Source of the DNA: Bacteroidota Order II. bacterium
GTDB lineage: Bacteria; Bacteroidota; Rhodothermia; Rhodothermales; UBA2364
Reading direction: 5' to 3'
Assembly: GCA_016788705.1 (NCBI GenBank)
Contig: JAEUSQ010000027.1
Coordinates: 1,572-65,571 of the forward strand
DNA: 64,000 nt
The notes beneath the pieces were generated by a model. The model searched no databases. It was not told where the DNA came from and was given only the letters and a program-made list of their open reading frames with translations. This document shows, in pieces, positions 19,731-49,805 of this stretch. The stretch's first letter is position 1, and every line of letters starts with the position of its first letter. A program made the translations under genes and the position numbers.

Positions 19731-20052
19731 GAAAGTTAAGCTGTAGAGAAACTAGCGCGTTTTGCAATTCTGCACGTTCATGCATCGCAGATTGACTATC
19801 AGCAACTTGCGTGCCTAATTTATAGGTCGCCTCCGCTTTTTCGCGATCACCAAACTTCTCATACAGTTTACCCAGATGGTAGTATGTCCCGACGTATCCC
19901 GGATGCCCTTCGACGAGGGCTTCAAATTGCGTCCGCGCAGCCATTAGATCACCCATTTTCAGGTATTCCTGTGCGATTGCAAATTGTGTAAAAGCATCGG
20001 TTGGGTCCTCTGCCAAATACATTTTGAGTCTTTCTAATCTAGAAATTGCCAT
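19717..20052 (-). CDS. Tetratricopeptide-repeat protein (111 aa)
   Basis: TPR-like helices ([40 protein letters not shown]). Overlaps the start of the LysM gene. Confidence 0.7.
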
Positions 20053-20174
20053 TGTTAAATTTTGAATAACATCGTTAGTTTACGAATTAAGTTACAACAA
20101 AACCCCTACTTCGTCAAAAAAAATGCGGCACCTCATTTCTGAAATACCGCCGTTTCTTGTATCGAGTCTAAGAT

Positions 20175-20936
20175 TTACCAACTATCCCCAGCGCCACCTC
20201 CGCCAAAGTCTCCCCCACCGAAGCCAAAGTCGGAGCTGCCGCCGCTACTCCACCCAGATGACGACGAGGAGGAAGAATCCCAGCCACTTCCGAAGATAAT
20301 AGGCCCACCACCATATCCACCACCAAAACCATCTCCACCCCTATTTCGGCGCGAAGCCTTGCTCACCACTACAAAAAAGAGAATGATAAGGATCAAAATA
20401 AACAGGAAGAAAATCAACCCAGCGAAATCGTCGTCATCAGAGGATGTGCCATCAGATTGATAGGCGCCACTGGCTGCCGATATTAAGGCATCCACCGCAG
20501 TATTCGTTCCTTGGAAATACTGTTCCTGCCGAAAAGCAGGCACCATGTATTCCCGAACAATTTGTTTGGCGGTAAAGTCGGTGATATTGGCCTCCAAGCC
20601 ACGTCCTACAGCAATATAAGCCTTCCGATCTCCTTTAGAAATCAGCACAATCACGCCGTTGTCCTTGTTTTTTGTTCCAACGCCCCACTCATGACCCAAT
20701 TCGGTGGCATATTGGTTCGCATCCATGCCTTCTAAAGAAGGTATGGTCACTACGACAAACTGATTCGAGGTTGAGTCTTCGTAGGCATTTAGTTTTTGTC
20801 GCAAGATTTCGCGCTCGTTACCCGAAAACAAGTTGGCCGCGTCGGTGACGGGACCAGTGGACTTAAGGTTGATTTTTTGACCGTAAACCGGAATGCCCAA
20901 CAACAGCAGGCACAACAAACGCAAAGCGTAACGCAT
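20175..20936 (-). CDS. TPM-domain (TLP18.3/Psb32/MOLO-1) protein with TM helix and Gly/Ser-rich tail
   Basis: Signal peptide, VTDAANLFSGNEREILRQKLNAYEDSTSNQFVVVTIPSL, a TM segment and a GGGYGGG...SSSSSS tail. Downstream of lemA. Confidence 0.8.
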   Translation of the reverse strand: MRYALRLLCLLLLGIPVYGQKINLKSTGPVTDAANLFSGNEREILRQKLNAYEDSTSNQFVVVTIPSLEGMDANQYATELGHEWGVGTKNKDNGVIVLISKGDRKAYIAVGRGLEANITDFTAKQIVREYMVPAFRQEQYFQGTNTAVDALISAASGAYQSDGTSSDDDDFAGLIFFLFILILIILFFVVVSKASRRNRGGDGFGGGYGGGPIIFGSGWDSSSSSSSGWSSGGSSDFGFGGGDFGGGGAGDSW

Positions 20937-21002
20937 GGTCGAAAGAGGCTAAATGGAAAGGGAGGGGCACAAAAACAGGCCCCACCCTTGGAACAAAAGA
21001 AG

Positions 21003-21587
21003 TTAGAACTGGACTTTAGGTGCATTTTGGGCACTGGCATCTGCCTGGAAGGGCTGCTTGGCCGAGAAACCCATCATACCTGCAAACATGACCAACGGAA
21101 AACTCCGAACCTTTACGTTGTAGTTTTGAACCACTTCGTTGTAACGATTCCGCTCCGTATTAATCCGGTTTTCTGTTCCTTCTAATTGACTTTGAAGCCC
21201 TACAAAAGCCTCTGTCGCCCGTAGTTGCGGATAGTTTTCTGCAACCATCATCAAGCGCCCTAAGCCTTGGCTCAGCGAAGCCTGCGCTTGTTGGAATTGC
21301 TGCATTTTCTGCGGATCATTCAAGTCTTCTGCTTTTAACTGGATAGAAGTGGCTTTCGCCCGTGCTTCCACCACTTGCGTCAGGGTTTGTTGTTCAAAAT
21401 TGGCTGCACCTTTCACAGTGCTGACCAAGTTCGGGACAAGATCTGCACGACGTTGATATGCCGATTGTACGTTGGCCCAAGCGGTTTGGACTTCGGAATC
21501 GGTTGTTACTAGGCCGTTATACTGAGAGCAGCCCCACATACCAAAGAGCGCCACCACAACAATTGCAAGAATAGCACCACCTTTCAT
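21003..21587 (-). CDS. lemA: LemA family protein
   Basis: N-terminal TM helix and the LemA signature region AWANVQSAYQRRADLVPNLV. Confidence 0.9.
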   Translation of the reverse strand: MKGGAILAIVVVALFGMWGCSQYNGLVTTDSEVQTAWANVQSAYQRRADLVPNLVSTVKGAANFEQQTLTQVVEARAKATSIQLKAEDLNDPQKMQQFQQAQASLSQGLGRLMMVAENYPQLRATEAFVGLQSQLEGTENRINTERNRYNEVVQNYNVKVRSFPLVMFAGMMGFSAKQPFQADASAQNAPKVQF

Positions 21588-21802
21588 AGTTTTATTAAAT
21601 TTTAAATAGGTGAAGGGATTGCATTACCGGATTGATAGAGCCGGTTGCTTTATGTGCCTTAATATACGCTTTAGGCTTGTGAGGTTGCGAATTTTTCGTC
21701 TTCAGGATTAAAGAAAAGGTGAATCCGGTTGAATGGCTGATATTACAGACCCTTTTTGATAGAGACATTATTCAATCTATTAGATTTTTGCTTCGTGGGT
21801 TT

Positions 21803-23359
21803 TTATTGCCATCGTTCCGAAACCGTATCTAATACCGACTTGGTTTTCTCAAAAAAATGCACGGCCCGTTCGGGTGTACGACCAATAGAGACCACACCCA
21901 ATTTTCCAAACTCGGAAAGCGCTCCTATCAAATGAAAGACCACCCCTTCTTGGTCGGTACTTTCATAATGCAGGTTCTCACACATCGCCAGATCAATCAG
22001 ATCGGGAGGAGTGATGCCTTTATAATGCGGGGACTTCAGGTTATCGGTGGCAAAATAAAAACGATTTTGTCCATTGAGGGTCTCATACAATCCGGAGTGT
22101 GGATTATACCGCCCATCAGTCAAAAACTGGAGCATCAGATAAGGATGGGTTGTCCCCCCTTTTCGGAGATTAATTTCGATAGCGAGATGTTTCCAGCAAT
22201 TGCCCTGTTTTACCGAAATAAAGTCCACCGCAAAGCGCCCCATCACGTTTTTGGACTGTAGTACTTTTCCTATGGCCAAGCCATTTCGGGCAATTTCGCG
22301 GCTATATTCGGGATCGGCAGGAAATTTTGCACCCAGAAAAATTTGTCCGGTTGCCGCATCCAAGACCTGATCGTGTGTAGAAACCACCTCCACCTCACCA
22401 AGCGGATTAATTCGACATTGTACAGAAGGAGAAACCTTCACCTCTCCTTCAACAAAGACTTCTACAATCCCGCCCAGTTCAATAATTTTCGCCATATAAG
22501 CCGCATAATCTAAATGTGGGGCCACTATTTTTAGGTGTTTGGGCAGGTAATGCTTCAGCCATTGTTTTAATGAAGCATCGGAAGGTGCTTGTTCTAAATG
22601 GACAATGGCATTGCCTTCTCCCGAGAAGCCTTCGTTCATTTTAACCACCATTTTGCGGGTTTCGGGCAATTGGCGTTTAATTTCAACAATGGCCTCTACC
22701 ACATCCAGTTCGCTTCTTAGGTTTTCAAAACCCGGCGGCATGTCCACACCTGCTTCACGAAAAGCCATACGACTCCCACTTTTCGATCCCCAAAACATAA
22801 GTTCCGGATCGCAGCCATACAGTGGAACCCCCAAACGTACTGACAAGGTTCGTTCAAGAGGTGTTACATTAAAAGCAGCAATGTGTGCGGCGTGACCATG
22901 TGGGATGCATTGTCGGATGCGCTCCATCAAAAGGGGCCGTTCCAAAATTTTCTGGGTCAAAGACTTGGCAGAGGCGTCGTAACAACTTAATAAGGTCAAA
23001 CGTTGGCGGGCATGCCATCCGGTAATTCCGGGTAATAAATGCAGGTAATAATCCACAATGACCGGATCAAGCGGGGTACTGGTTAGATAGATGATATGCG
23101 TTCGAGGCATACGCAACAGCATGAGCAGAGAAAGCATCCGTTCTTCGTAATGGATTTCTCCAGGTATGGTTCCGAGCATATCTTGGTCTAATGTGGTACT
23201 GGGCAGGACAATAATGGTTTTAGGCGCCAATGGATCAGGAAATGCATCTCGGTATTGTGTGACAAACGTATTTTGTAGCCGTAAGAATGCGGCTACTTCT
23301 TCGGTTGAAGCAGGGATAGGAAATTGAGGCGGCTCAATATGGGGAGAGAGTGCGTACAT
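21803..23359 (-). CDS. ATP-grasp-like carboxylate-amine/peptide ligase (PGM1-like, tentative)
   Basis: 518 aa. The central region GSKSGSRMAFREAGVDMPPG...KMVVKMNEGFSGEGNAIV resembles an ATP-grasp core. The assignment is from motif memory only. Confidence 0.5.
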   Translation of the reverse strand: MYALSPHIEPPQFPIPASTEEVAAFLRLQNTFVTQYRDAFPDPLAPKTIIVLPSTTLDQDMLGTIPGEIHYEERMLSLLMLLRMPRTHIIYLTSTPLDPVIVDYYLHLLPGITGWHARQRLTLLSCYDASAKSLTQKILERPLLMERIRQCIPHGHAAHIAAFNVTPLERTLSVRLGVPLYGCDPELMFWGSKSGSRMAFREAGVDMPPGFENLRSELDVVEAIVEIKRQLPETRKMVVKMNEGFSGEGNAIVHLEQAPSDASLKQWLKHYLPKHLKIVAPHLDYAAYMAKIIELGGIVEVFVEGEVKVSPSVQCRINPLGEVEVVSTHDQVLDAATGQIFLGAKFPADPEYSREIARNGLAIGKVLQSKNVMGRFAVDFISVKQGNCWKHLAIEINLRKGGTTHPYLMLQFLTDGRYNPHSGLYETLNGQNRFYFATDNLKSPHYKGITPPDLIDLAMCENLHYESTDQEGVVFHLIGALSEFGKLGVVSIGRTPERAVHFFEKTKSVLDTVSERWQ

Positions 23360-35543: not shown

Positions 35544-36134
35544 TCCATACAAGGATTTTAAATATAAAAACACTTGTTTAATTATAAGAAATTATTTTTT
35601 AAAACCTTTAGCAATCGCTCCTGACGGTCCCAGAATGCTGTTATTTCGCCATGAGCGGTTTTGACTTTAGAACAGACAAGCAAGGAAGCGCAACAAGCTG
35701 AAGCGCAGATAATAAAACAGACACTTTAGACTTTACACCATGCTCCCCCTCCGAAGACATACAAATCTGCACCCCATCTACACCTTCCACAAATTATTTC
35801 CCATAGAACCACATAACATATTTCATTTTCCTTCTATGGGTTTATCCCCTGTTTCACATTTTTGAACACTTTCCCAAAATATTTACCTCCTGAAAAAGTT
35901 GCACCCTTACTTTAGAAAGTTTTATATTGTAATGGCTAAATATGGTTAAACTTCCACTCGCTGATAAGGAAAGGTGTGTATTGTAAAATGATGTTGCGTT
36001 ACACCTACATAATCAGGGAAACAGAATATCGAGAAACCCTTCCAAGTTTTTTTCACTAAAAAATACAGCGAAAAGGATAAGACAACTAAGTTAATTGTTA
36101 TGTTTGAAAACAAACCATTTAAACAGCAAAACAG

Positions 36135-37814
36135 ATGAAAAAATCTATTATAGTTCTATTTTTAAATTCAATATTCGGACAAATTTTTGCCCAACCTACC
36201 AATCAAGATTATTTAATACAGGGTGATATGTATTACAATGATGGCAACTATGATATGGCAATTAATTCTTATGTAGTACATAAACTATCAAATTCAGAGG
36301 ACAAAATTGTAAACATTAATATTGGACTATGTTACTTAAGAAAGATTCAAAAAGAAACACCTTTAACTTCTATTATTGGCATTCCTGCATTGACAACCAA
36401 TGCCGAAAAAGCAATATCTTATTTCAAATATTACCTTGAGTCGCAGCCACCAATTTCTATAAGTTCAGATAAAAATGTATATACTACTTACAAACTAATA
36501 GCAGAAACTTACGCAACAATGCTCAACTGGGAAAAAACATTAGAATATGCAAGTATTATGTACAATATCAATCCGAATTATAAATTCACCAATGACTATG
36601 GCGTTAAGGAATTTTACAACGATGCAAATAATGCACTAGCAAATTGGTACTGCGACCAAGCCTATTTATACTCTGAAAAAGAAAATGAAATAGAAGTAAA
36701 AAAACATTACGACAAAGCATTACAGTACTTTAAAGAACCGCTAAGTGAACATTCCCTTTTTTATAGAGGCTTTGCTAACTCAAAGTTAGGTAATTCAGAT
36801 AAAGCTAAAATTGATTTGGGAAATGTTATCAAATTATATCCCAATAGTTCTTATGCTTTACTTGCTAAACAGGAATTAGAAACAATAAATATCAATGCTG
36901 CATTACAATCTGATCCTTTAAATAATAATTTATTAACCTTTGAAAGGCCATCTTACAAAGGTGAAATTCTTTACTATAGCGGCGAGATAAAAAATGGAAA
37001 AGCAAATGGTAAAGGTGAGGCGACAACAAGTTTTAACCATTTCTACAAAGGTGACTTTAAAGACAATGAATATCACGGAAAAGGCTTGCATAAATGGACT
37101 AATGGAGATACTTATGAAGGATATTGGCTAAATGGACAAAGGACTGGAAAAGGTGTTTACAAATGGGCAAATAATACGGCCTTAATCTATGAAGGGGATT
37201 TTGTAAATGGACAAAGGACTGGAAAAGGAAAAATGAAGTGGACAACTGGTGAAATGTATGACGGAGAGTGGTTAAATGACAAGCAAACAAAAGGGTTCGG
37301 GGTTTATAAATATGGCAATGACACTTATACTGGCGACTTATTAAATAATAACCGACACGGAAAAGGGACTTATAAATGGGCCAATGGTGATATTTATATT
37401 GGTGATTGGCAAAATGGCTATAGAACAGGTTATGGGAAATACACTTACATGAATGGAAAAATTGAGGAAGGATATTTTGAAAATAATATACTTAAAACAG
37501 TAACAAATACAACACAAAACACTACTTCTGCGTTTTCATTTAATGAAGACACAGAAGTAGAAAAAGCTAAACTAGCAACGAAAGAAAAAAGGTATAATAA
37601 TGCTATTGAAACGTACACTTTTTTAATTCAAAAAACGGGTCAAGCATATTTGTATTTTGAAAGGGGGAAAATATATTCGACCACAAAAGAGTATCAAAAA
37701 GCAAAAAATGATTTTCATTCTGCAATCAATATCTGGAGTACAATACAAACAGAAAAATACAGCTGGCTTAAAGAAGATGCCCAACAAGAATTAAGAAAAA
37801 TTGAAAACAAATAA
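36135..37814 (+). CDS. Secreted TPR - MORN-repeat - TPR protein
   Basis: Signal peptide. About 7 MORN units of the Y-x-G-(D/E)-x(5-6)-G-x-G type (e.g. YEGYWLNGQRTGKGVYKW) flanked by TPR-like helices. AT-rich gene. Confidence 0.8.
   Translation: MKKSIIVLFLNSIFGQIFAQPTNQDYLIQGDMYYNDGNYDMAINSYVVHKLSNSEDKIVNINIGLCYLRKIQKETPLTSIIGIPALTTNAEKAISYFKYYLESQPPISISSDKNVYTTYKLIAETYATMLNWEKTLEYASIMYNINPNYKFTNDYGVKEFYNDANNALANWYCDQAYLYSEKENEIEVKKHYDKALQYFKEPLSEHSLFYRGFANSKLGNSDKAKIDLGNVIKLYPNSSYALLAKQELETININAALQSDPLNNNLLTFERPSYKGEILYYSGEIKNGKANGKGEATTSFNHFYKGDFKDNEYHGKGLHKWTNGDTYEGYWLNGQRTGKGVYKWANNTALIYEGDFVNGQRTGKGKMKWTTGEMYDGEWLNDKQTKGFGVYKYGNDTYTGDLLNNNRHGKGTYKWANGDIYIGDWQNGYRTGYGKYTYMNGKIEEGYFENNILKTVTNTTQNTTSAFSFNEDTEVEKAKLATKEKRYNNAIETYTFLIQKTGQAYLYFERGKIYSTTKEYQKAKNDFHSAINIWSTIQTEKYSWLKEDAQQELRKIENK
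36954..37484 (+). repeat. MORN repeat array (coding, about 7 units of ~23 aa)
   Basis: Recurrent YxGxxxxGxxxGxG spacing across residues ~274-450. Confidence 0.7.
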
Positions 37815-37944
37815 AAACAGCAAGTAATATCAGTTTACTTAGCTAATTACTTCGGTCGTGTGGCAAAATGGCGGGTTCAGTGCTAAACAGTGTTTTTTTA
37901 ATTGAACTTAAATTCGTCTTTATAAACAATAAGACCTCATCAAT

Positions 37945-38922
37945 AGACATTATGTCAGTTTATTTTAGGGTATTGAAGTGGTGTAATTGAGGTTATGAGA
38001 TTGTGTAAATGCTGCCCCAGTAGCGAAAGCGTTTTTTACAAAATTGTTCTTTCTTAATCGGCATCCATCTTTGAGAATACGCAAACGTTTTATGCTTCCA
38101 ATGGCGTGTTCGACATGCGCTCGTGTACGAAATATTTCTCGATTGAGCGCTTTTTGTTCGCTGTTCAATCCTTGACGACAAGGTTTTTTGATTGATTGAT
38201 GAATCCTGCCTTCATCGGGCACCAAACCTTGATAAGCCGTATCTTGGCATACCATAAATCCTGATGGAATCGTGTAATAGGTATCTGCTACCTTTTTATC
38301 ATGTATTTTATTCGGAACCGAAGGAAAAAAACAATACATAACAGAGTACAGTGGGTAATGACTGCGTTTTTCAATGTCTGTTTTTTTTACCACTACACAT
38401 AACTTCTTGTTTTTCTCGACCTTGTGGACGTAGTATTTTGCGCGTCGTACAGTTATTAAGCAAGGTTTTATCTTCTACTGTGGTTAAGACTTATTGTAAG
38501 GCTTCATCCGTTCTAAAAGGCATTGTTTGTGCAAGAACCAACACCTTTTTCAGAGCTATATGTAGGCCATGAGTAAGTTGTGAGCATTGTTTTTGGGTAA
38601 GACGAAACAAATCGAATCGGTATGTGCTCCTTGTAGAGGATTGAGTTTGAGGTAAAACAAGATAAAGACAGGTCGCTCTTGAATCGTTGGCGAAGGACTG
38701 TTGGAGTAACGGACAAATTTTCGATAACTATTTTGTCCTTTTCCATTCAGATCAAACGTTTTGAAGTGGGCTTGATGTGCTTGTTCAAAAAAAGGAAACA
38801 ACGCATTAACTTGTTAGAGCGTGTGCCCTGTCATGGCTAAGAAGCGACCGGGCATTGTTGACCAGTGATCGTATTTCATAGCTTCGCGCATATACTTATA
38901 AAGTTAGCGTAACATAATGTCT
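37945..38922. mobile_element. Decayed ~1-kb IS (IS5-superfamily, HTH_Tnp_4/DDE_Tnp_4 Harbinger-like) with intact 11-bp TIRs and 3-bp AAT target duplication
   Basis: AGACATTATGT at 37945-37955 is the reverse complement of ACATAATGTCT at 38912-38922. AAT occurs at 37942-37944 and again at 38923-38925. Confidence 0.75.
37965..38879 (-). pseudogene. Transposase pseudogene of the IS above (in-frame stop plus frameshifts)
   Basis: The N-terminus MKYDHWSTMPGRFLAMTGHTL* is followed by ...ERPVFILFYLKLNPLQ (HTH_Tnp_4-like). The C-terminal DDE part is QDTAYQG...KKP...LNSEQKALNREIFRTRAHVEHAIGSIKRLRIL. The pieces lie in different frames. Confidence 0.7.
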
Positions 38923-40616: not shown

Positions 40617-41855
40617 ATGAACGTTCCGAATTCTGCCGCCAACGGAGCGGATACCATTGACTATAGTGGACTTGGCTTGGCTTGCGCAGGAGGTGTGGTA
40701 GAAGGTGCTATCTATGAAATTGGCGCCCTTAACGCCTTACAAGATGCCATTGTCGGATTAGACCTGAATCAGATGAGCACATATGTAGGCATCAGTTCCG
40801 GTGCACTCCTGACGTCCTGTTTGGCAAATGGGGTAACCGTGCGTGCGCTTAGCAAAGCAGTGGTAGGCCATGCAGAAGAAGCCGAATTAAACTTTGAGCC
40901 CAATACACTTTTTGGGTTTGCCATAGACGAATATATCCAGCGGCTTTCCAATATTCCAAAAGCAGTCTGGAAGTCGGTAGAATACCTTTTCCAGCACCCT
41001 ACCCAATGGTCTCTTTGGGGATCCTTGGGGGGATTCGGCAGGGTTATCCCAGCAGGTATTTTTGACAATAAAAACTTAGAAAAGTACCTACGGTTTGTAT
41101 TTTCTAAAGTGGGGAGGAGCAATGATTTCCGAAAGCTCAAAGCAAAATTGCGCATTGTTGCCACCGACTTAGACACAGCGGAATTGGTGAGTTTTGGGGA
41201 AACGGGCTTTGATGAGGTACCCATTTCCGTAGCTGTTCAGGCGAGTACGGCCTTACCCGGTTTGTACACTCCTATAAAAATCGGAAAAAAATATTACATA
41301 GATGGCGTTGCTCGCCGCACGGTCCATGCATCTGCGGCATTGAAAGAAGGCGTTAAATTATTGTTTTGTATCAATCCAATCGTGCCGATCAACACCCGTT
41401 CCGGTGAAGTACAAGGAGAAGGCAAACACTTAAACGATTACGGACTTCCCGCAGTAATGTCGCAGACATTCCGTGTCTTGGTATTTTCCAGGATGCAGAC
41501 GGGGTTTGAACGGTACAAAATGTTTTATCCCGATGCCGACACCATCCTGATTGAACCCCGAATGGACGATGACGAAGTTTTCTTCTCGAACATATTCAGT
41601 TTCTCGAACCGTCACAAGGTGGCTGAACATGCCTATCAGAAAACCCGCACCCATTTGCTCGAACAAGCAGAGATCATCCAGCCCAAATTGGCCAAACACG
41701 GACTGCGTTTAGACATCGAGGGCCTCAAAAAACCACGATCGCTGTATAATGAGCACGATTTAAATCAAGGAAGCTCCTTTTTTGAAGAAGCTCAGAACAC
41801 TTTTGAAAAATTAGACATGGTGCTTCAAAGCCTCCGAAAAACCGTAGGTGTATGA
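40617..41855 (+). CDS. Patatin-like phospholipase family protein
   Basis: Oxyanion Gly-rich loop CAGGVVEG, nucleophile elbow GISSG (GxSxG) and catalytic Asp in YIDGVARR. Confidence 0.85.
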   Translation: MNVPNSAANGADTIDYSGLGLACAGGVVEGAIYEIGALNALQDAIVGLDLNQMSTYVGISSGALLTSCLANGVTVRALSKAVVGHAEEAELNFEPNTLFGFAIDEYIQRLSNIPKAVWKSVEYLFQHPTQWSLWGSLGGFGRVIPAGIFDNKNLEKYLRFVFSKVGRSNDFRKLKAKLRIVATDLDTAELVSFGETGFDEVPISVAVQASTALPGLYTPIKIGKKYYIDGVARRTVHASAALKEGVKLLFCINPIVPINTRSGEVQGEGKHLNDYGLPAVMSQTFRVLVFSRMQTGFERYKMFYPDADTILIEPRMDDDEVFFSNIFSFSNRHKVAEHAYQKTRTHLLEQAEIIQPKLAKHGLRLDIEGLKKPRSLYNEHDLNQGSSFFEEAQNTFEKLDMVLQSLRKTVGV

Positions 41856-42749
41856 TTCCCGCAAACTTAAAAGGTTCCCTTTGGTTCTCTGTTGTGTTAG
41901 GTATGCTTCACCATAAGCCAAAAAAGCTTGATGAAGCGCCTTGGTAACCGACCCCACTTGCCCATTACCTATTTTCAGGGCATCCAACTGCACCACCCCC
42001 ACAGCACCGTTGGTTGTCGAAGTTACAAATGCCTCTTGGGCCGTTTGTAATTCATCTATGTGTACGGGCCGCATTTCTACGGGGTACCGATCTTGCGCCA
42101 ATTCCAAAATCACGCCACGGGTTATTCCCCGCAATATGCGGTCATGGGGTGTTACAACCACCCCCGTTTTCGTTACCAAAAAGAAATTTGACCGCGAAGA
42201 CTCTGTAATCCATCCTTCCGGGTCAATGTACAACATATCAAAGGCTCCCGCTTTACGAATCTGTGGCAAAGCCCTAATCGGAACAATATAATTGAGCGTT
42301 TTAGCCTCTGCTATTTCCCGGACGTAAGGATGGGCAATTAGGAGAACGCCCTCGGTATAGTATTCCGGCTTAGGAGCTGGATAGGGGGCATCAAGCACAA
42401 TCAGATTAGGAGTCGTAGGATGGTAACTATCCGACGAGAAGCCACCCGTCAAAACCAACCTCAAACCAGCGCTCGGATGACCATTGGCCGCAATCAATGA
42501 ATAAATATGTGCCTTCAGTGCTGTTATAGAAAGCGGTATTTCAAGCCCCAAGAGCGCGGCAGAATGCTGGAAACGTGCCAGATACCTATCCTCAAAAAGG
42601 GGTATCCCATTGACCACCCGCATAAAATCAAAAACACCATAACCGCGCAACAAGGCCAAGTCGGTTACATGCAGTTTGGCATCGGCTGTTGAAACCACAT
42701 CGCCATTAAGACCAATAAAAGGCGAGGAGAAAACAGGAACAGTAAACAT
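41811..42749 (-). CDS. Class IV (branched-chain / D-amino-acid / ADC-lyase type) aminotransferase
   Basis: Fold-type IV pattern including the Lys region EAKTLNYIVP and ESSRSNFFLV...ILRGITR. Confidence 0.8.
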   Translation of the reverse strand: MFTVPVFSSPFIGLNGDVVSTADAKLHVTDLALLRGYGVFDFMRVVNGIPLFEDRYLARFQHSAALLGLEIPLSITALKAHIYSLIAANGHPSAGLRLVLTGGFSSDSYHPTTPNLIVLDAPYPAPKPEYYTEGVLLIAHPYVREIAEAKTLNYIVPIRALPQIRKAGAFDMLYIDPEGWITESSRSNFFLVTKTGVVVTPHDRILRGITRGVILELAQDRYPVEMRPVHIDELQTAQEAFVTSTTNGAVGVVQLDALKIGNGQVGSVTKALHQAFLAYGEAYLTQQRTKGNLLSLRESYTYGFSEALKHHV

Positions 42750-42770
42750 GAATTCGAGGTCGTCAAAGGT

Positions 42771-44459
42771 TTATGAAAGGGCGGTTTGTTGAATAACAGT
42801 ATGGAGCATAGTCAAAAAATCGCTCAAGGCCAATTCATTGGTAAAAGGGATTTGATGAAATCTACCACGATTACAATACATCCAGTGTGCCAGAATCCGG
42901 ATTTCATCTACCTCTTTCTGGCCGTACCGTTCAGGAGGTTTACGGTGGGGCGAAAACTGGTCTTCCACAACGGCTTGAAGCAGATGTAAGACCTGTTCTG
43001 TTTGCCAGCCATGCGGACTAAACCGAAGTGTCTCCACTTTTTTTCCAAAACGGATAAGGTGTACCAACAGCGCGCCTTCTTCCATAAGCACAAACGCTCC
43101 ATTATGATCCCGGACAGGCGCGGCAATGTGCTTCCGTCCTTGCAATATCCGATCAAACATCTGTAATTGATCTCTAAACCATCGTGCTTCCTCGAAGGCT
43201 AAAGCCGTTGCTGCTTTTTTCATCTTATGCTGCAAGGCCGTTCGAACACTTTCATTTTCGCCCATTAGAAAATTCCGCACCATTTGTACGTGATCGGCAT
43301 ACGCTACCCTCGCTTCAGGTTTTGCACACGGGGCTTCGCAGCGACCCATTTCGTGATAAATGCAGACCGCTTTCCGGTTAAACGTACTTTCGTCACACTC
43401 CCTTAGGCGAAAAAGCTGGTTAATCCATTCCAAAGTCTGCTCGGCTTGTTCACGATTTGCCAAAGGCCCAAAATACTCGGCTCCATCATTTAGTACCACA
43501 TATTTCCATCCAACCGTTGGGAATGCAAGATGGCTATTGAGACAGATAAACGGTGCATTTTTATACCGAACCAATGCACGGTTAAATTTAGGCAGGTGTT
43601 GCTTGATGAGCTTAGATTCATACAGCAAGGCATCCAGCTCTGACGGCAAGGCATCCCACTTAATGTCCCGCACTTCCCGCACCAGATTTTGGGTTTTCTT
43701 GGGGTGATTTTCAATGGCCCGAAAGTATGAAGTTACCCGATCCTTTAAACGCCTTGCCTTCCCTACATAAATCAACCGCTTTGACCGATCATACATTCGA
43801 TAAACACCGGGGAGATCTGGAATTTGGGGCAAGATTTTTTCTCGGATAATGGGAATGTGTTTGGGCTCCCCCTTCGTTTGCGCATAAGACTTGTATTGGA
43901 AACGAATTGCCTCTTCAATGGTGCTGATATTGAATTCAGTATCGAGGATACGTGCCAATTGTACAAAGATTTTGGCGGTAGCTTCGGCATCTGCAGTGGC
44001 CCGGTGGTGGTTGACAATGCGGATACCAAAATGGTTGGCCAAGTTTTTTAGACCGCGAGAAGGAAGACGTGGCAATAACCGACGCGCCAGCCGCAACGTA
44101 CACAATTTTTTTTGCTCTAAGGCTGGCAACTCGGCCCGCTCCAATTCTGCCGACACAAATCCATCGTCGAAAGAAAGGTTGTGCGCGACCAAAACCCCAT
44201 CTCCCACAAAGGCCAGAAAATCCATAAATGCTTCTTCCGGTGGGGGCATATTGACCAACATCGCCGTATGAATGCCTGTGATTTCGGTAATAAAACGGGG
44301 CACAAATTTGCCCGGATTGACTAATTGGGAAAAACGAGCCACCTCCACCCCATTCACCAATTTAATAGCCCCTATTTCAATCACACGGTCTTCGTCCGGC
44401 TTCATGCCAGTCGTTTCTGTGTCAAATACCACAAAGGTGTGATTGGTTAAAAGCGTCAC
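42771..44459 (-). CDS. DEDDh 3'-5' exonuclease (DnaQ-like) fused to UvrC/Cho-like GIY-YIG nuclease
   Basis: Exo motifs FVVFDTETTG, VAHNLSFDDGF and HRATADAEAT. GIY-YIG PGVYRMYDRSKRLIYVGKARRLKDRVTSYF ... YESKLIKQHLPKFN. Cys cluster CIYHEMGRCEAPC. Confidence 0.85.
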   Translation of the reverse strand: MTLLTNHTFVVFDTETTGMKPDEDRVIEIGAIKLVNGVEVARFSQLVNPGKFVPRFITEITGIHTAMLVNMPPPEEAFMDFLAFVGDGVLVAHNLSFDDGFVSAELERAELPALEQKKLCTLRLARRLLPRLPSRGLKNLANHFGIRIVNHHRATADAEATAKIFVQLARILDTEFNISTIEEAIRFQYKSYAQTKGEPKHIPIIREKILPQIPDLPGVYRMYDRSKRLIYVGKARRLKDRVTSYFRAIENHPKKTQNLVREVRDIKWDALPSELDALLYESKLIKQHLPKFNRALVRYKNAPFICLNSHLAFPTVGWKYVVLNDGAEYFGPLANREQAEQTLEWINQLFRLRECDESTFNRKAVCIYHEMGRCEAPCAKPEARVAYADHVQMVRNFLMGENESVRTALQHKMKKAATALAFEEARWFRDQLQMFDRILQGRKHIAAPVRDHNGAFVLMEEGALLVHLIRFGKKVETLRFSPHGWQTEQVLHLLQAVVEDQFSPHRKPPERYGQKEVDEIRILAHWMYCNRGRFHQIPFTNELALSDFLTMLHTVIQQTALS

Positions 44460-44473
44460 AGATAATAGCGTGG

Positions 44474-46396
44474 TTATGGCATTAAATAGCCCAATACTCC
44501 AAGACGGCCTTTCAACTCGGAAACATGCGCATGCTCAACCATTATATGACGGTTTTCTGCGCGTAAAATAAGCTTAGACAATACCGGATCCGTCAGGAAC
44601 AACTGCAACAAATCCGGGTCATCATCCAATTTAAAAACCTGATAAGTCGCAACAGCCCGTATGGGACGGATTCTTGTTCTTATTTTCACAATAAATTCCA
44701 ACCAATTTATTGGCCATTCGGTGATCGGCACCTCCACTACCCGCTGAAAGTCTTTTATCCGCTCATTTGCCTCCTCGACCGTCGTACAGTTCTTCAGAAA
44801 GCTCCGAAAATCTGCCCGAAACCGACACGTAGCCACTTGTTCGGCAAATCTACTTAAGTTCGCCTCTTTAATGCTGTCGGGTTTGGAAATCGTGATCATC
44901 AAAAAATCCGGATCTAGTTCTATATTGGTTTTTCCTGATTCAACAATTTCCTTTTTATACACATATGTGGGTGCTTGACCAAAGAAATAAGCGCCTAAAT
45001 CAGTTAATCGTACATATTGAATACCATCAAAAAGAGTAAGATACTCCTCATCTGGAACACGAATTTCATCATTAATGGGGTCCGTATAGGCAATTTCAAC
45101 CAAACCCAAGGAAGCCATAATAGAAAAGAATGATCTCACAAATGGTAGTGCCAAAACCTCAATTATTTGTGAAAAAGATATTTCTTTTTTTATGAAATTA
45201 ATCTTATCATTCTCTCTAATGGCTGAATCCAGATAAAGATCTTTAACTGAAAAAGATTGAATATAACTAAAAAAAACATCGTTCATGTGATACATCCATT
45301 GGGCAATATGTAGCGGAGAATACCATACTTTTTTTTCAAGTTTACGCATTAACTCCTGCAACTCCTGCAAGACGGGTTGTAAGTTTTCATCAAAAGAAAA
45401 ATTGGTATTAGGTTTATAAATATACGAAAAAAATATCTTCTTTGTTATATGGTTTGGCATCATAAACAAAGCATCTAAAATATGTTTCAATATCACTAAA
45501 GGTTGATCATAATGAATTTTTATACCTAAATTAATAAATAAATTCGCCAATAAATTCGTCATAACGAATGCACGAGGTCCTTTATTTTCTTTATATAGTT
45601 CTTGAATTTTTGCTACTTTTTTCAACTCTTTAAGCGTAGATATCGAAATTTTATTGGTTGCAGTTTTCTGGATAGTTACTTCCCTAAAATAAGTCACCAA
45701 AGTATTCACATGTAAAGGTGCATGACCGTCAGATTCTATATCATAGCGTTGCCAATCTGCTAATATTTCTGACTGTTCAGCATATAGCAACTTAGAGGGT
45801 AAAATACTTTTGAACCACTCCCTTAATATCTTTTTTATTTCTTTACTAAGATCCACATCATAAGCATTGGTATATGAAGAATAACCATATCTACTACTAT
45901 TACGGAATATTTCATATGCTCTTTCTACATCTCGATAATAATTTTCTTGGTTGGTTTGATAAAAAATGATGCCAAAATTTTCTTTTAAAGAACGTGCCGA
46001 TAACGAACCAAAGCATGCAACCTGAAAGAAGATTGTTTTCACTTCTTCGGGAAGTGTATTATAAAAACGTAAAAAAGATGTCCGGTTTCCCCAAATAGTA
46101 GCTATAGCAGTGGCCAATGCTTTTTTAGAAGGTTGCTTAATAGGTTTTAACCAAACATTTGGAATTTTTATATCCACTTTTCCGGCATCAGAAACAAGAT
46201 AAGGCAGGATATAGTCATCGTAGAAAATTTTTAATGACTCTATACCTTTATCCCTTAGCAATGCAGATTGAATAATAGCTTCTGGAGATTTACCCATAAC
46301 TTCTTCTTCGGATTGAATAATACCTTGTGAAGATCTACCCAGGACTTTTTCTTCGATAACGCGCCTTGGGCGTCCACGTCTTAGCTGGTGTGCCAT
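44474..46396 (-). CDS. Unknown 640-aa protein with N-terminal AT-hook-like RRGRPRR. The C-terminal region faintly resembles the XPB N-terminal / Helicase_C_3-type domain.
   Basis: Uninterrupted ORF, 11 nt after the SNF2 stop and 14 nt before the nuclease start. No catalytic motif recognised. There is a strong internal composition shift. Confidence 0.6.
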   Translation of the reverse strand: MAHQLRRGRPRRVIEEKVLGRSSQGIIQSEEEVMGKSPEAIIQSALLRDKGIESLKIFYDDYILPYLVSDAGKVDIKIPNVWLKPIKQPSKKALATAIATIWGNRTSFLRFYNTLPEEVKTIFFQVACFGSLSARSLKENFGIIFYQTNQENYYRDVERAYEIFRNSSRYGYSSYTNAYDVDLSKEIKKILREWFKSILPSKLLYAEQSEILADWQRYDIESDGHAPLHVNTLVTYFREVTIQKTATNKISISTLKELKKVAKIQELYKENKGPRAFVMTNLLANLFINLGIKIHYDQPLVILKHILDALFMMPNHITKKIFFSYIYKPNTNFSFDENLQPVLQELQELMRKLEKKVWYSPLHIAQWMYHMNDVFFSYIQSFSVKDLYLDSAIRENDKINFIKKEISFSQIIEVLALPFVRSFFSIMASLGLVEIAYTDPINDEIRVPDEEYLTLFDGIQYVRLTDLGAYFFGQAPTYVYKKEIVESGKTNIELDPDFLMITISKPDSIKEANLSRFAEQVATCRFRADFRSFLKNCTTVEEANERIKDFQRVVEVPITEWPINWLEFIVKIRTRIRPIRAVATYQVFKLDDDPDLLQLFLTDPVLSKLILRAENRHIMVEHAHVSELKGRLGVLGYLMP

Positions 46397-46407
46397 CTTT
46401 TATTCTG

Positions 46408-49245
46408 TTAAGTCCCAAAAATATACAAAATATCATCCTCCGAGAGTGACTTAAGCATCCCTTCGTCTGAACTAATAATGGCTTCTACTAAGGCTTGTTT
46501 CTGTAGTTGAAGTTGAACAATTTTTTCCTCAATGCTTCCTTTGGTAACAAGTTTATGGCTAAATACGGTTTTATCCTGGCCAATTCGGTGTGTCCGGTCT
46601 ATTGCCTGTTGCTCGGCAGCGGTATTCCACCACGGATCAAAAATGAACACATGGTCGGCGGCAGTTAGGTTAAGACCCGTCCCCCCTGTTTTTAGGGTCA
46701 TAACAAAAACCTTGGTTTCGGGATCTTCCTGAAACCGTTGCACCAGTTCTTGTCGGTTGGAAGTTGCTCCCGTCATGCTCACATAGGGAATCCCCGCTTG
46801 TTCCAAATCGTTCCCAATGGCTTCCACACCCGCCAAATAATGGGTAAATATCAGCGACTTGTGCCCATTCAATGCCGCATCTGTCAATTGCTCCATCAAA
46901 ACACTGCGCTTGGGCGACCGGATCCGGCCATCGCTTTTCGCTTCGGGAATACTTGCAATCTGACGAAGTTCATTCAATGCCTGAAAAATAAAGAACTGTG
47001 TTTTGGCGATGCCGTCTTTGGCTACCTGATTTTGGATGGTATCCACATAGTACCGACGTCGGCGCTCATAGAAAGCCCGTTGGACGTCGTTCATTTCCAC
47101 CCAAAGTGTCTGATCTACACGGTCTGGTAGTTCCTTGGCCACTTCGCGTTTTAATCGTCGGAGGATGAAGGGATATATTTTTCTCTTTAGTTCGTGTGCA
47201 GCCTCTTCGTCCTGATTTTTTTGGATGGGAGTGGCGTAACGCTCAGAAAAATCTTGCTCACTTCGTAGCATAGCAGGGTTTAAAAAACGAAACAAAGCGT
47301 ACAGTTCGCTCAAATTATTTTCGATGGGTGTACCAGAAAGGGCGAGACGCACGTCGGCCTTGATCATCAAGGCAGCTTTAGTCGCCTGTGTCTGTAAGTT
47401 TTTAATGTTCTGAGACTCGTCAAGCACCACATAATGAAACTTTCGGTCCTTAAACGCCTCAATATCACTCCGTAACATGCCATAGGTTGTCAGGATTAAC
47501 TGATGCTTGAAGGCTTCATCTAAATCTCGATTTTGGCGGTAATAGGTATAAAATCGTAGGCTGGGGTTAAACTTTGTTAGTTCAGCCTCCCAGTTGAACA
47601 ACAAGCTAGTGGGCATTACTACCAGCGAAGGCTTTTGTTCTGCCGGATAAACCGTACTCAACAGGGCAATGGCCTGAGCCGTTTTTCCAAGCCCCATATC
47701 ATCTGCCAGACACCCTCCTAAGCCATGCTCCCGGAGGTAATCCATCCACCGTACCCCATATTCTTGATACGGACGTAAATGCCCCTGAAACTGATTGAGG
47801 GACATATCCCGATCTTGGACATGGTTAAATCCTTTATATACCGACCATACCTCTGGTAATGATGTCGCTCCTTCTAATTGCTGCTCGATCATCGAAGCCG
47901 CAATGGGTAAATCGAAAAACGAAATCCGAGCACCTTCTTGGTTTACATCCGAAAAAATCCGCTCTAATTTGCGAATATAAGCCTCATTAATCAGCGCTTG
48001 TGAACCATCGCCCAACTGTACGTATCCTGCTTGGCGCACCTCCGTCAAAACATCAAACAACGAGAATCGTTCCCCTTCCAACGTAAGAGAAACATCTCCA
48101 GCGAGGTAGTCAATCCCACTATCTAATCGCATATCTAAATTGGGCGTGACAAAACGGATTCGATAAGACCTTAGCTTTTCTGCACCAAATACCGGATATT
48201 TTTGTACCAAGCTGTAAAGATGTTTATAAACAAATTCATGGGCCAACCCTCTTTCAATCAGCAACGTATCCCCTTCTCGAATAAACCCGTAATCTTGTTT
48301 CCCTGCTTTGCTTAACGTCCGTTGGAGTTTTCCAAGCAACCCTTCCAAGACCTGAAATACCTCCCCAAGCGGCTCCGTCTGAATTGGGCGCACCACAATC
48401 CGGCTTTCAAGGTCATCAATTTTGACGGAAACACTCACCAAAGAGGCTACAGCAGATGGTAGTAGTTCCCCTGGAATAGCTGAAGACACACGCAGATAGA
48501 GGGCATCAAGCGCATCTACTTTATCAAAAAAAAGGCCTACCCGAACTTTTAGCAATTTATCCCAAACCGTTTCATATTGCTGCCAAACCAATGAAATGTG
48601 TTGCGACAAAGAGAACAGAATACATAAGAACGGATGAATGTCTTTGGTCTCTAACGTGGCCTCCAGATGTTGAAGCTCATTCCACGTCGGCCCGAGCGGT
48701 GGTATTTCGTAAAGGCTATTCCTTACCATAACCCAGCCATCCGCCACCATCAAAGGTGAAGAGAGTACTTTTTCTCCTTCCCGAAGTTGGAGTTTCGCCT
48801 TCCAAACACCCATTTCATCAGATTCTAACAGGTGCATTTCTAATTTTGCCTTTTCCGAAGCATATTTGACCGCTGCCCCAGTTGCGGTTATAAAAAACGC
48901 AGAATGTCGCAAGTATTCCAGAACGAGGGGTACTTCATCTATCACATAAGAAGTCTCCACTTCTGTTCCTTTAGCAGTACTCCAAATTTCACCCCAATCA
49001 TTTCCGGACGGCTTCTTGCCGAACGCATAGGACAATGTTTTGAGCACTTGTCGTGTCTCCCCTTCATATCCCAGATAATCTGGTAAGAAAGAAACAGGCT
49101 TTTTATCCGGCCCCAGGATGATTAGCCGTCCCCCATGCTCCGGAGAGACATCCAGACGAAACCACAAAGGCGAAAGTAATAACTTACCCGAATGTAGGGT
49201 GCGGTTGGAAACTTTTAGCCTTTGAAATAAATCTTCAATACCCAT
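46408..49245 (-). CDS. SNF2-family DNA-dependent ATPase/translocase with a ~480-aa N-terminal extension (bacterial SNF2-associated type)
   Basis: Motif I LADDMGLGKTAQ, motif II VLDESQNIKN, motif III LSGTPIENNLSELYALFRFLNP and the helicase-C block FDPWWNTAAEQQAIDRTHRIGQ. Confidence 0.92.
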   Translation of the reverse strand: MGIEDLFQRLKVSNRTLHSGKLLLSPLWFRLDVSPEHGGRLIILGPDKKPVSFLPDYLGYEGETRQVLKTLSYAFGKKPSGNDWGEIWSTAKGTEVETSYVIDEVPLVLEYLRHSAFFITATGAAVKYASEKAKLEMHLLESDEMGVWKAKLQLREGEKVLSSPLMVADGWVMVRNSLYEIPPLGPTWNELQHLEATLETKDIHPFLCILFSLSQHISLVWQQYETVWDKLLKVRVGLFFDKVDALDALYLRVSSAIPGELLPSAVASLVSVSVKIDDLESRIVVRPIQTEPLGEVFQVLEGLLGKLQRTLSKAGKQDYGFIREGDTLLIERGLAHEFVYKHLYSLVQKYPVFGAEKLRSYRIRFVTPNLDMRLDSGIDYLAGDVSLTLEGERFSLFDVLTEVRQAGYVQLGDGSQALINEAYIRKLERIFSDVNQEGARISFFDLPIAASMIEQQLEGATSLPEVWSVYKGFNHVQDRDMSLNQFQGHLRPYQEYGVRWMDYLREHGLGGCLADDMGLGKTAQAIALLSTVYPAEQKPSLVVMPTSLLFNWEAELTKFNPSLRFYTYYRQNRDLDEAFKHQLILTTYGMLRSDIEAFKDRKFHYVVLDESQNIKNLQTQATKAALMIKADVRLALSGTPIENNLSELYALFRFLNPAMLRSEQDFSERYATPIQKNQDEEAAHELKRKIYPFILRRLKREVAKELPDRVDQTLWVEMNDVQRAFYERRRRYYVDTIQNQVAKDGIAKTQFFIFQALNELRQIASIPEAKSDGRIRSPKRSVLMEQLTDAALNGHKSLIFTHYLAGVEAIGNDLEQAGIPYVSMTGATSNRQELVQRFQEDPETKVFVMTLKTGGTGLNLTAADHVFIFDPWWNTAAEQQAIDRTHRIGQDKTVFSHKLVTKGSIEEKIVQLQLQKQALVEAIISSDEGMLKSLSEDDILYIFGT

Positions 49246-49354: not shown

Positions 49355-49468
49355 ATAGTTTATGTTAAGCATTTTACAAAATGGATTCCCGTTTTCGCGA
49401 GCATGACGTACTCGGCACTTAAAAGCCCGTCATGCCCAACTTGATTCGACATCCATAACATAAACTAT
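49355..49468. repeat. MITE/REP-like 114-bp element bounded by 13-bp inverted repeats, in the upstream region of the SNF2 operon
   Basis: ATAGTTTATGTTA at 49355-49367 is the reverse complement of TAACATAAACTAT at 49456-49468. The interior holds a GC-rich palindrome, GCATGACG...CGTCATGC. Confidence 0.4.
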
Positions 49469-49521: not shown

Positions 49522-49551
49522 ATAAAAAAAGGCAATCAAATAGATTGCCTT
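49522..49551 (-). terminator. Rho-independent terminator downstream of rpsU
   Basis: AAGGCAATC pairs with GATTGCCTT over 9 bp with a 5-nt loop. A 7-nt U-run follows on the minus-strand transcript. Confidence 0.75.
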
Positions 49552-49604: not shown

Positions 49605-49805
49605 CTAAAATTCGAATTCTTCGCGACTGTTTTTTCGGGCTACTCGGTCAGACTTTTGACGGGCTAAACGATTGGTTTCCGAAGGCTTTGTATAGGCAAG
49701 TGTTTCACGATAGATTCGAAGCACTTTGCTACGGTTGATGGTGCGTTTAAAGCGGCGAAGGGCACGGTCTATAGACTCGTTTTCCCGAATTTTGATCCCT
49801 ACCAA
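49605..49805 (-). CDS. rpsU: 30S ribosomal protein bS21
   Basis: (M)VGIKIRENESIDRALRRFKRTINRSKVL matches the S21 N-terminal signature. The start codon appears to be TTG. Confidence 0.9.
   Translation of the reverse strand: MVGIKIRENESIDRALRRFKRTINRSKVLRIYRETLAYTKPSETNRLARQKSDRVARKNSREEFEF

Follow-up and report, generated by a model that had tools for sequence, protein, structure and literature searches.

A stretch of 64,000 nucleotides (nt) from a Rhodothermales metagenome-assembled genome, called the window here and used for all positions below, carries four closely packed minus-strand genes, and the first two of these, encoding an SNF2-family ATPase and a partner protein, are the subject of this study. 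The SNF2 gene (46408-49245, 945 amino acids (aa), assigned by Pfam) is followed by the partner gene (44474-46396, 640 aa), whose product is predicted to be p52/Tfb2-like, and together they are the first and second gene of the conserved pair described below. Two genes that are neighbours of the pair in one lineage only come next: a Cho-like fusion of a DEDDh exonuclease with a UvrC-N-like GIY-YIG nuclease (42771-44459, 562 aa, GTG start) and a class IV aminotransferase-fold gene (41811-42749, 312 aa). From the SNF2 gene to the aminotransferase gene the intergenic gaps are 11, 14 and 21 nt. A first-pass annotation of this DNA had described the same four packed genes, and its open reading frame (ORF) positions and gaps were reproduced; Pfam also agreed with the domains it had named, an SNF2 ATPase with an N-terminal extension of ~480 aa, a fusion of two nucleases and a class IV aminotransferase. 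Beyond the SNF2 gene lies rpsU (49605-49805), 3' of which a terminator-like hairpin was found on the minus strand (49529-49551; 9-bp stem, then a T-run), its sequence being kept in the relatives L001 and L003, and this predicted terminator splits rpsU from the SNF2 transcription unit. Since the short gaps between the four genes hold no terminator-like site and the hairpin stands behind rpsU, co-transcription of all four in this Rhodothermales genome is plausible. No Rfam families or tRNA genes were present in the window.

The pair was followed in a genome scan with one genome per species, in which 62 partner loci were identified; six-frame ORFs of these loci were then searched with the window proteins. 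Adjacency was counted on the 50 loci whose upstream DNA was 2.9 kb or longer: in 43 of them an SNF2 gene of 900-980 aa lies directly upstream of the partner gene on the same strand, with a median gap of 23 nt. In the reverse direction, a partner-family member was found immediately downstream in all four SNF2 orthologues that were retrieved by an SNF2 query alone; one SWIM-containing SNF2, the single outgroup example, had no partner-family gene downstream. A partner homologue of only 24% identity also stands behind an SNF2 gene, followed by LMWPc and flavodoxin genes, and all-against-all clustering of flanking ORFs yielded no third conserved gene. Furthermore, the SNF2 and partner distance matrices are correlated (Mantel r 0.83 for 47 pairs; none of 2000 permutations reached this value). 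The SNF2 and partner genes thus almost certainly constitute a conserved two-gene module.

The partner family is large, comprising 1595 representatives at 50% identity in an exhaustive profile search, 766 of them with E <1e-30. A homologue search by word index had returned only seven partner relatives, an underestimate of ~200-fold, and the rarity suggested by such an index would mislead for this fast-evolving and compositionally biased family. The loci of the scan represent at least eight phyla (Bacteroidota, Desulfobacterota, Fusobacteriota, Firmicutes, Spirochaetota, Omnitrophota, Desantisbacteria and SAR324). The partner is without a model in Pfam, NCBIfam and PADLOC, its RefSeq label is 'hypothetical protein', and no description of an SNF2 gene paired with a p52-like gene was found in the full-text literature, the coverage of which is incomplete and leaves out most papers in subscription journals. 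The pair is therefore apparently undescribed, in line with the earlier statement that the gene set matches no named system.

Several partner loci show features of their own. At L039 (6968-12749) a family member lacking an adjacent SNF2 gene has an SRAP peptidase upstream and topoisomerase III downstream, and at L044 (6085-9140) another SNF2-less member is directly preceded by an AlkD-like 'DNA_alkylation' protein. Two partner copies occur in tandem at L009 (1-2124) and L032 (2937-5565), both L032 copies standing behind one SNF2 gene, a possible sign of a duplication that gave paralogues, or of hetero-oligomers that assemble via the C-terminal domain. L082 (3274-9207), on the conjugative megaplasmid pSX1_LC6 of Shewanella sp. 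LC6, encodes a 585-aa hypothetical protein that has only the winged-helix (WH) motif and early clutch stretch in common with the family (window residues 428-522, 35% identity); its gene has a group II intron reverse transcriptase on one side and a type I restriction R-subunit-like fragment on the other.

The nuclease and the aminotransferase have a far narrower linkage to the pair. In the third protein Pfam identified RNase_T (DEDDh) and GIY-YIG domains, and with 592.8 bits over residues 4-548 (cut-off 495) the protein is a full-length match to NF005906, 'DEDD exonuclease domain-containing protein'. The uvrC model TIGR00194 matches it over residues 208-482 only, corresponding to the N-terminal half of UvrC, and for this reason the nuclease is called Cho-like; the GTG start is supported by exonuclease motif I (DTETTG), which is encoded before the first internal Met. 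The two nuclease domains of the earlier annotation are thus real, and their fusion, presented there as part of an undescribed set, belongs to a family that already has a name. The fourth protein matches Aminotran_4 (E 3.1e-48, 165 bits; Pfam), remaining below the cut-off of every NCBIfam subfamily when D-amino-acid transaminase, branched-chain aminotransferase and aminodeoxychorismate lyase were compared (best 140.5 versus 320). Its gene and a convergent patatin-like gene (40617-41855, plus strand) overlap at their 3' ends by 45 nt (41811-41855).

The nuclease gene adjoins the SNF2-partner pair only in L001-L005, L011 and L078-L080, and a metagenome scan with the nuclease returned only close relatives. 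Relatives whose partner is 65%, 41% and 43% identical to that of the window keep all four genes together with sigma-70, VWA, sucA, OMP, TMEM220 and rpsU; since all these flanking genes are syntenic too, the four-gene synteny reflects shared ancestry and provides no independent evidence of a joint function. This conservation, which persists where the partner is only 41% identical, contradicts the earlier view of a variable locus. Given that the pairing spans phyla and that the nuclease and aminotransferase accompany it in one lineage only, the conserved unit is SNF2 plus partner, and the trio and quartet are lineage-specific juxtapositions. Of the system proposed in the first-pass annotation, consisting of SNF2 ATPase, adaptor, nuclease and aminotransferase, the pair is retained and the linkage of the other two genes to it is confined to close Rhodothermales relatives; synteny among homologues likewise holds for the pair and fails for trio and quartet outside this lineage.

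In this Rhodothermales lineage the pair lies 14 nt upstream of the Cho-like nuclease gene and is, to judge from the gene spacing, probably co-transcribed with the nuclease and aminotransferase genes. One could therefore argue that the four genes, or the first three, encode a single translocase-adaptor-nuclease machine for repair or defence, possibly an alternative excision pathway of the Rhodothermales. The short, terminator-free gaps and the retention of the arrangement beside a 41%-identical partner would agree with such a machine, and wiring to repair is plausible for a UvrC-N/Cho-like nuclease, as p52-XPB in eukaryotes serves excision repair. However, the adjacency of both genes is limited to one fully syntenic lineage, ~50 pairs from other phyla have neither homologue within ~8 kb, the nuclease belongs to the stand-alone named family NF005906, and the aminotransferase has no plausible role in a machine of this kind. 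We consider a single machine quite unlikely; the linkage to the pair is lineage-specific and may be merely positional, and the nuclease and aminotransferase are not to be counted as parts of a system.

The SNF2 protein has an intact motor. SNF2-rel_dom matches residues 493-764 (E 3.6e-65) and, together with Helicase_C, spans residues 493-889 (Pfam); the closest solved structure of the core is Sulfolobus SSO1653 (1z63, E 1e-96), and the GLGKT, DESQ and SGTP motifs are invariant in 47 of 47 SNF2 orthologues. The RapA/HepA model NF003426 was clearly failed by the window protein (29.9 bits versus a cut-off of 576). The N-terminal region (residues 1-480, 47806-49245, minus strand) has no Pfam match over its ~480 aa, and a word-index search with this region alone returned nothing, yet it is homologous to the N-termini of the partner-linked SNF2 proteins (E 1e-31 to 1e-66). 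PF08455 (SNF2_assoc), which does not match the window N-terminus, is matched by 2 of 22 SNF2 orthologues (best E 8.7e-10), and more distant SNF2 relatives (P0182-P0195), with a core identity of 36-42%, possess PF08455 and SWIM. On the strength of the two orthologue matches, the N-terminal region may be a divergent member of the bacterial SNF2_assoc module. It was modelled by AlphaFold2 (AF2) with a predicted local distance difference test (pLDDT) score of 80. A clutch-pairing domain resembling the N-terminal domain (NTD) or DRD of XPB was considered for this region and dropped, as the model gave no significant fold match. In one lineage, at L006 (1892-4014) and also at L007 and L008, a short SNF2 gene of only 621 aa stands beside a full-length partner; it has neither the Q-motif nor the Walker A (GKT) segment, the greater part of the N-terminal region is missing, and a small ORF overlaps its start. 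These may be decaying motor genes or an assembly artefact common to three assemblies of the same study.

The 640-aa partner begins MAHQLRRGRPRR and is 100% identical to JNN12_07135. Most family members are ~600 aa long; some, with a length of 800-880 aa, have HEAT repeats at the N-terminus. Among the 150 best-listed members, 28, roughly a fifth, have such an extension of ~260 aa; the long partners at L013-L016, L022, L023, L025 and L028 are encoded by ORFs of 823-867 aa, and their extensions match Pfam HEAT_2, mostly under the gathering score. A relationship between this extension and the AlkD-like protein upstream of L044 was rejected, BLASTP finding no similarity. The N-terminal tail of the window partner (residues 1-45, 46262-46396, minus strand) is lineage-specific and of low confidence, with a pLDDT of ~29 for residues 1-34 in the AF2 model. 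It contains the RRGRPRR motif (residues 6-12, 46361-46381) on which the first-pass annotation had based its description of an AT-hook adaptor protein without catalytic motif. The motif is a genuine AT-hook-like string and is present in the window partner and in the 65%-identical relative P0002, but absent from P0003-P0007 (the five others of alignment A1) and from the ~50 further members of alignment A2; it is not conserved as a functional element, so that assignment as an AT-hook and the adaptor idea drawn from it find no support. Beside RRGRPRR, the 5' end of the gene contains a 45-nt tandem duplication (46266-46355, 84% identity, family D4) that encodes two 15-aa copies, EEKVLGRSSQGIIQS and EEEVMGKSPEAIIQS.

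The partner gene has a guanine-plus-cytosine (GC) content of 35.5%, compared with 45.6-47.9% in the neighbouring genes, and this had been taken as foreign-looking composition. The low value is genuine; however, it is common to the orthologues of the relatives (33.6-36.8%), and in 53 of 59 pairs the partner gene has the lower GC of the two. Low GC is therefore a trait of the gene family and no sign of recent foreign origin. The partner also evolves faster than the motor, with a mean pairwise divergence of 75% versus 50% for SNF2.

Although the first-pass annotation had left the middle protein featureless, structure prediction suggests a p52/Tfb2-like architecture that it had overlooked. An AF2 model of the partner was obtained from a seven-sequence alignment (pLDDT 67.7), and in a Foldseek search of the PDB its best 17 matches were all TFIIH p52/GTF2H4/Tfb2 (E 3.5e-6 to 1.3e-2), comprising human and yeast proteins and the 6trs Tfb2 crystal structure, most of them over ~570 columns. 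The identity of the p52 chains was checked by comparing the human p52 sequence with the PDB (462/462 residues). The model also matched the N-terminal region of XPB (169 columns, probability 0.99-1.0) and Tfb5 (56-58 columns, TM-score 0.59-0.66). The XPB N-terminal domain has the 'clutch' fold of p52, and Tfb5 has the fold of the p52 C-terminal domain. An independent bridge is provided by the distant Spirochaetia members L071 and L072, which score 84 and 62 bits against the C-terminal half of the family profile: both match PF13625 (Helicase_C_3) with E 5.5e-8 and 1.3e-7 in a segment that maps to window residues ~506-612, and in human p52 PF13625 matches residues 326-375 (E 5.6e-6). In the window partner this putative Helicase_C_3-like, or 'clutch'-like, region (44561-44881, minus strand) is followed by a short C-terminal alpha/beta domain extending to residue 640.

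The most conserved motif in the partner alignment, GLVEIAY...DGIQYVRLTDLG, lies just before this region (residues 431-468, 44993-45106, minus strand). Across 57 sequences its signature GLV...YVRLT.LG has G431, R463, L464, L467 and G468 invariant or nearly so, and the AF2 secondary structure around it (H408-429, E433-437, E459-464) is consistent with a winged-helix-like helix followed by a beta-hairpin. Because the Foldseek fold matches and the PF13625 bridge agree, the order of the partner would be p52-like: the model suggests helical and winged-helix-like repeats, the signature motif, the Helicase_C_3-like region and the C-terminal alpha/beta domain. We regard a p52-like architecture of the partner as likely.

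Taken together, the best explanation overall, and one in which we have moderate confidence, is a two-gene module in which a p52-like subunit would regulate a bacterial SNF2 translocase and bind DNA. Several observations weigh against it. Confidence in the partner model is no more than moderate, with low global TM-scores (0.12-0.21). The window partner itself has no Pfam match at all, PF13625 included, and the PF13625 scores of L071 and L072 (33.3 and 32.1 bits) fall just under the gathering score of 34.2. PDB profile searches with the partner gave no matches and hence no sequence-profile likeness to p52, and hhalign of the partner against p52, run once versus human p52 and once, using a family profile of 154 sequences, versus human and yeast p52 together, gave a probability of 0.1-0.2, with the p52 profile holding only 1-2 sequences. 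On the motor side, the AF2 model of the SNF2 N-terminal region matches no PDB fold significantly and XPB not at all, and since it contains no XPB-NTD-like domain, it does not supply the docking mode of a clutch. Moreover, ~10% of partner-family members have no adjacent SNF2 gene, and the correlation of SNF2 and partner distances may partly mirror a shared species phylogeny. In addition, the Tfb2 model PF03849 and the Tfb2_C model PF18307 had no match in the window partner or in 57 family members, among which the Pfam scan gave one faint Helicase_C_3 match only.

These points could be taken to mean that the likeness to p52 is a modelling artefact. The partner would then have no relation to the clutch mechanism of TFIIH and would be some general protein with several winged helices that binds DNA or acts as a scaffold and is inherited along with SNF2, for example an accessory factor of RNA polymerase recycling such as those assumed for RapA or YwqA. 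The lack of a sequence-profile signal between partner and p52, the moderate pLDDT and the low global TM-scores would all be expected in that case, and an interaction with RNA polymerase has been reported for YwqA, an SNF2 protein of Bacillus subtilis (PMC7385302). Yet the Foldseek result is specific, with human, yeast and 6trs p52/Tfb2 filling the 17 best places, it extends to the XPB-NTD and Tfb5 with their clutch and C-terminal-domain folds, and PF13625 connects the two families at an equivalent position by an independent route. An artefact of modelling is, in our judgement, unlikely, and we retain the p52-like subunit as the preferred reading of the partner.

The locus had initially been framed as a candidate defence system, and the pair might accordingly be a two-gene anti-phage or anti-plasmid system in the manner of DISARM, Zorya or Dpd. 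Its patchy distribution over many phyla and the rapid evolution of the partner (75% divergence against 50% for SNF2) would suit this idea, and some loci are flanked by insertion sequence (IS) elements (on a 524-kb megaplasmid replicon), a WYL regulator or a Uma2 nuclease. The window SNF2 core also scores high against the PADLOC models of DpdE and ZorD; however, these matches cover only residues ~484-941, the generic helicase core, and the protein is far under the NCBIfam cut-offs for ZorD (227.5/1500), DrmD (108/950) and DpdE (57/500). The PADLOC and Pfam check advised in the first-pass annotation left the partner without a match in either database. The conserved pair has no effector or nuclease domain, all 20 sampled flanking genes were housekeeping or metabolic with no defence neighbours, and genes such as rpsU, sucA, patatin and phasin surround the pair in the window and in its syntenic relatives. 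Relatives were not found in IMG/VR viral contigs or GenBank phages, and the position of the locus is stable within the Rhodothermales lineage. With a partner negative in PADLOC, housekeeping neighbours and no viral relatives, the defence framing is not upheld, and a role in immunity appears improbable.

In the preferred reading, an SNF2 translocase with a p52-like subunit, the SNF2 protein would act as a double-stranded DNA (dsDNA) translocase by means of its intact ATPase core, which is joined to a putative divergent SNF2-associated N-terminus. The partner would be a non-catalytic p52-like subunit that binds the SNF2 motor plus DNA or a target protein and, by analogy with p52 and XPB, this binding would anchor, target or stimulate ATP-driven translocation, enabling the complex to remodel or displace protein-DNA complexes or to open DNA in repair or transcription-linked events. 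From the same analogy we infer that the two proteins may interact physically and that the partner may regulate the ATPase. In TFIIH, XPB is anchored by p52 together with p8, the clutch and the NTD meeting in a pseudo-symmetric interface, and its ATPase is stimulated by them (PMC13024598).

The cellular process that the pair would serve is only faintly indicated. Genome maintenance or transcription-linked remodelling is favoured over immunity by the housekeeping context of the pair, by SNF2-less family members that adjoin SRAP and topoisomerase III or an AlkD-like protein, by the Cho-like nuclease beside the pair in the Rhodothermales lineage, and by the reported interaction of YwqA with RNA polymerase (PMC7385302). 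A partner-regulated translocase working in one of these two processes would, by analogy, be a realistic if tentative possibility. We find doubtful, though still conceivable, the more far-reaching proposal that a p52 relative, widespread in bacteria though unannotated, serves as the regulatory clutch of SNF2 in place of XPB and that the Rhodothermales module is wired to the Cho-like nuclease, creating a motor-plus-incision pathway that resembles nucleotide excision repair and is independent of UvrAB. If true, the p52/XPB-NTD clutch would be an ancient, portable regulator of superfamily 2 (SF2) translocases that is older than TFIIH.

Bacterial SNF2 ATPases are abundant and functionally obscure, save RapA and a few defence components. 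With the present analysis a large SNF2 clade gains an obligate partner, and the partner gains a predicted structural identity as a p52-like protein, giving a concrete hypothesis of a partner-regulated translocase. The novel aspect suggested by the models is that the SF2 translocase which a p52-like accessory subunit would serve is here a bacterial SNF2 motor. According to a 2012 paper on the XPB helicase of Mycobacterium tuberculosis (PMC3353954), no p52 homologues had been found in bacteria, and a widespread p52-like family that accompanies another SF2 motor would have consequences for the evolution of the TFIIH core.

Apart from the four genes, a MITE-shaped (miniature inverted-repeat transposable element) insertion of ~114 nt bounded by inverted repeats occupies the spacer between rpsU and the SNF2 gene (49355-49468, no strand assigned). 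Its 18-nt terminal arms are 89% complementary, an inner hairpin is present, and its DNA fold has a z of -4.2. The insertion is absent from the relatives L001 and L003, and no second copy was detected in the window or in 82 loci, so that no repeat family has been shown; of the MITE-like element named earlier, the inverted repeats and the insertion polymorphism are confirmed, with a single copy in the sequence searched. Elsewhere in the window, an AT-rich stretch (36000-38000, GC 29-35%) contains a 559-aa ORF (36135-37814) in which 41-nt repeats (37113-37435) translate to YEGYWLNGQRTGKG, resembling a MORN repeat. Three tandem 60-nt repeats at 19005-19184, the later copies being 92% and 65% identical to the first, fall inside a 539-aa minus-strand ORF (18111-19730). 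In the relative L003, a cluster resembling a diversity-generating retroelement was noticed ~4 kb downstream of the four genes (18547-21812), where precomputed Pfam labels mark a bAvd-family gene and an RVT_1 reverse transcriptase beside a kinase/FGE-sulfatase protein.

Comparison with known systems places these proteins as follows. Relative to the Cho/UvrC-N-DnaQ-like fusions of the NF005906/PRK07883 group, nothing sets the window nuclease apart save its lineage-specific adjacency to the SNF2 pair. With DISARM DrmD, Zorya ZorD, Dpd DpdE and BREX BrxH the motor shares the SNF2 helicase core, but its N-terminal region is unmatched, its scores are far under the ZorD, DrmD and DpdE cut-offs, and no other components of those systems occur among the neighbours whose domains were taken from precomputed Pfam labels or from scans of their own. 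Archaeal XPB-Bax1 offers a parallel in gene arrangement, since motor and partner are encoded side by side there too and a nuclease gene follows in this Rhodothermales lineage; in contrast to that system, the window has neither an XPB nor a Bax1/XPG-like nuclease, the partner is non-catalytic and predicted to be p52-like, and the nuclease is of the GIY-YIG/DEDDh type and not conserved with the pair. The motor also compares with the SNF2_assoc/SWIM SNF2 helicases (P0182-P0195), which have a closely related core (36-42% identity) and of whose SNF2_assoc module the window N-terminus may be a divergent form; like the window protein, they are poorly characterised. We assume that B. subtilis YwqA may have this architecture as well. 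Unlike these helicases, the window clade has no SWIM domain and possesses a dedicated downstream partner, which is absent from the SWIM outgroup example.

The XPB-p52(-p8) assembly of TFIIH differs from the bacterial pair in its motor, which is XPB there and SNF2 here, with a SNF2 N-terminal model that contains no XPB-NTD-like domain. The partner matches neither the Tfb2 nor the Tfb2_C model and gives no signal in hhalign, the neighbourhood holds no conserved p8-like gene, and the bacterial genes form a two-gene module outside any larger complex. Nevertheless, both systems pair an SF2 dsDNA translocase with a non-catalytic partner, the predicted domain order of the bacterial partner tracks that of p52/Tfb2 over most of its length, and it includes a putative clutch-type region as well as a small domain at the C-terminus that is similar to Tfb5 (p8).

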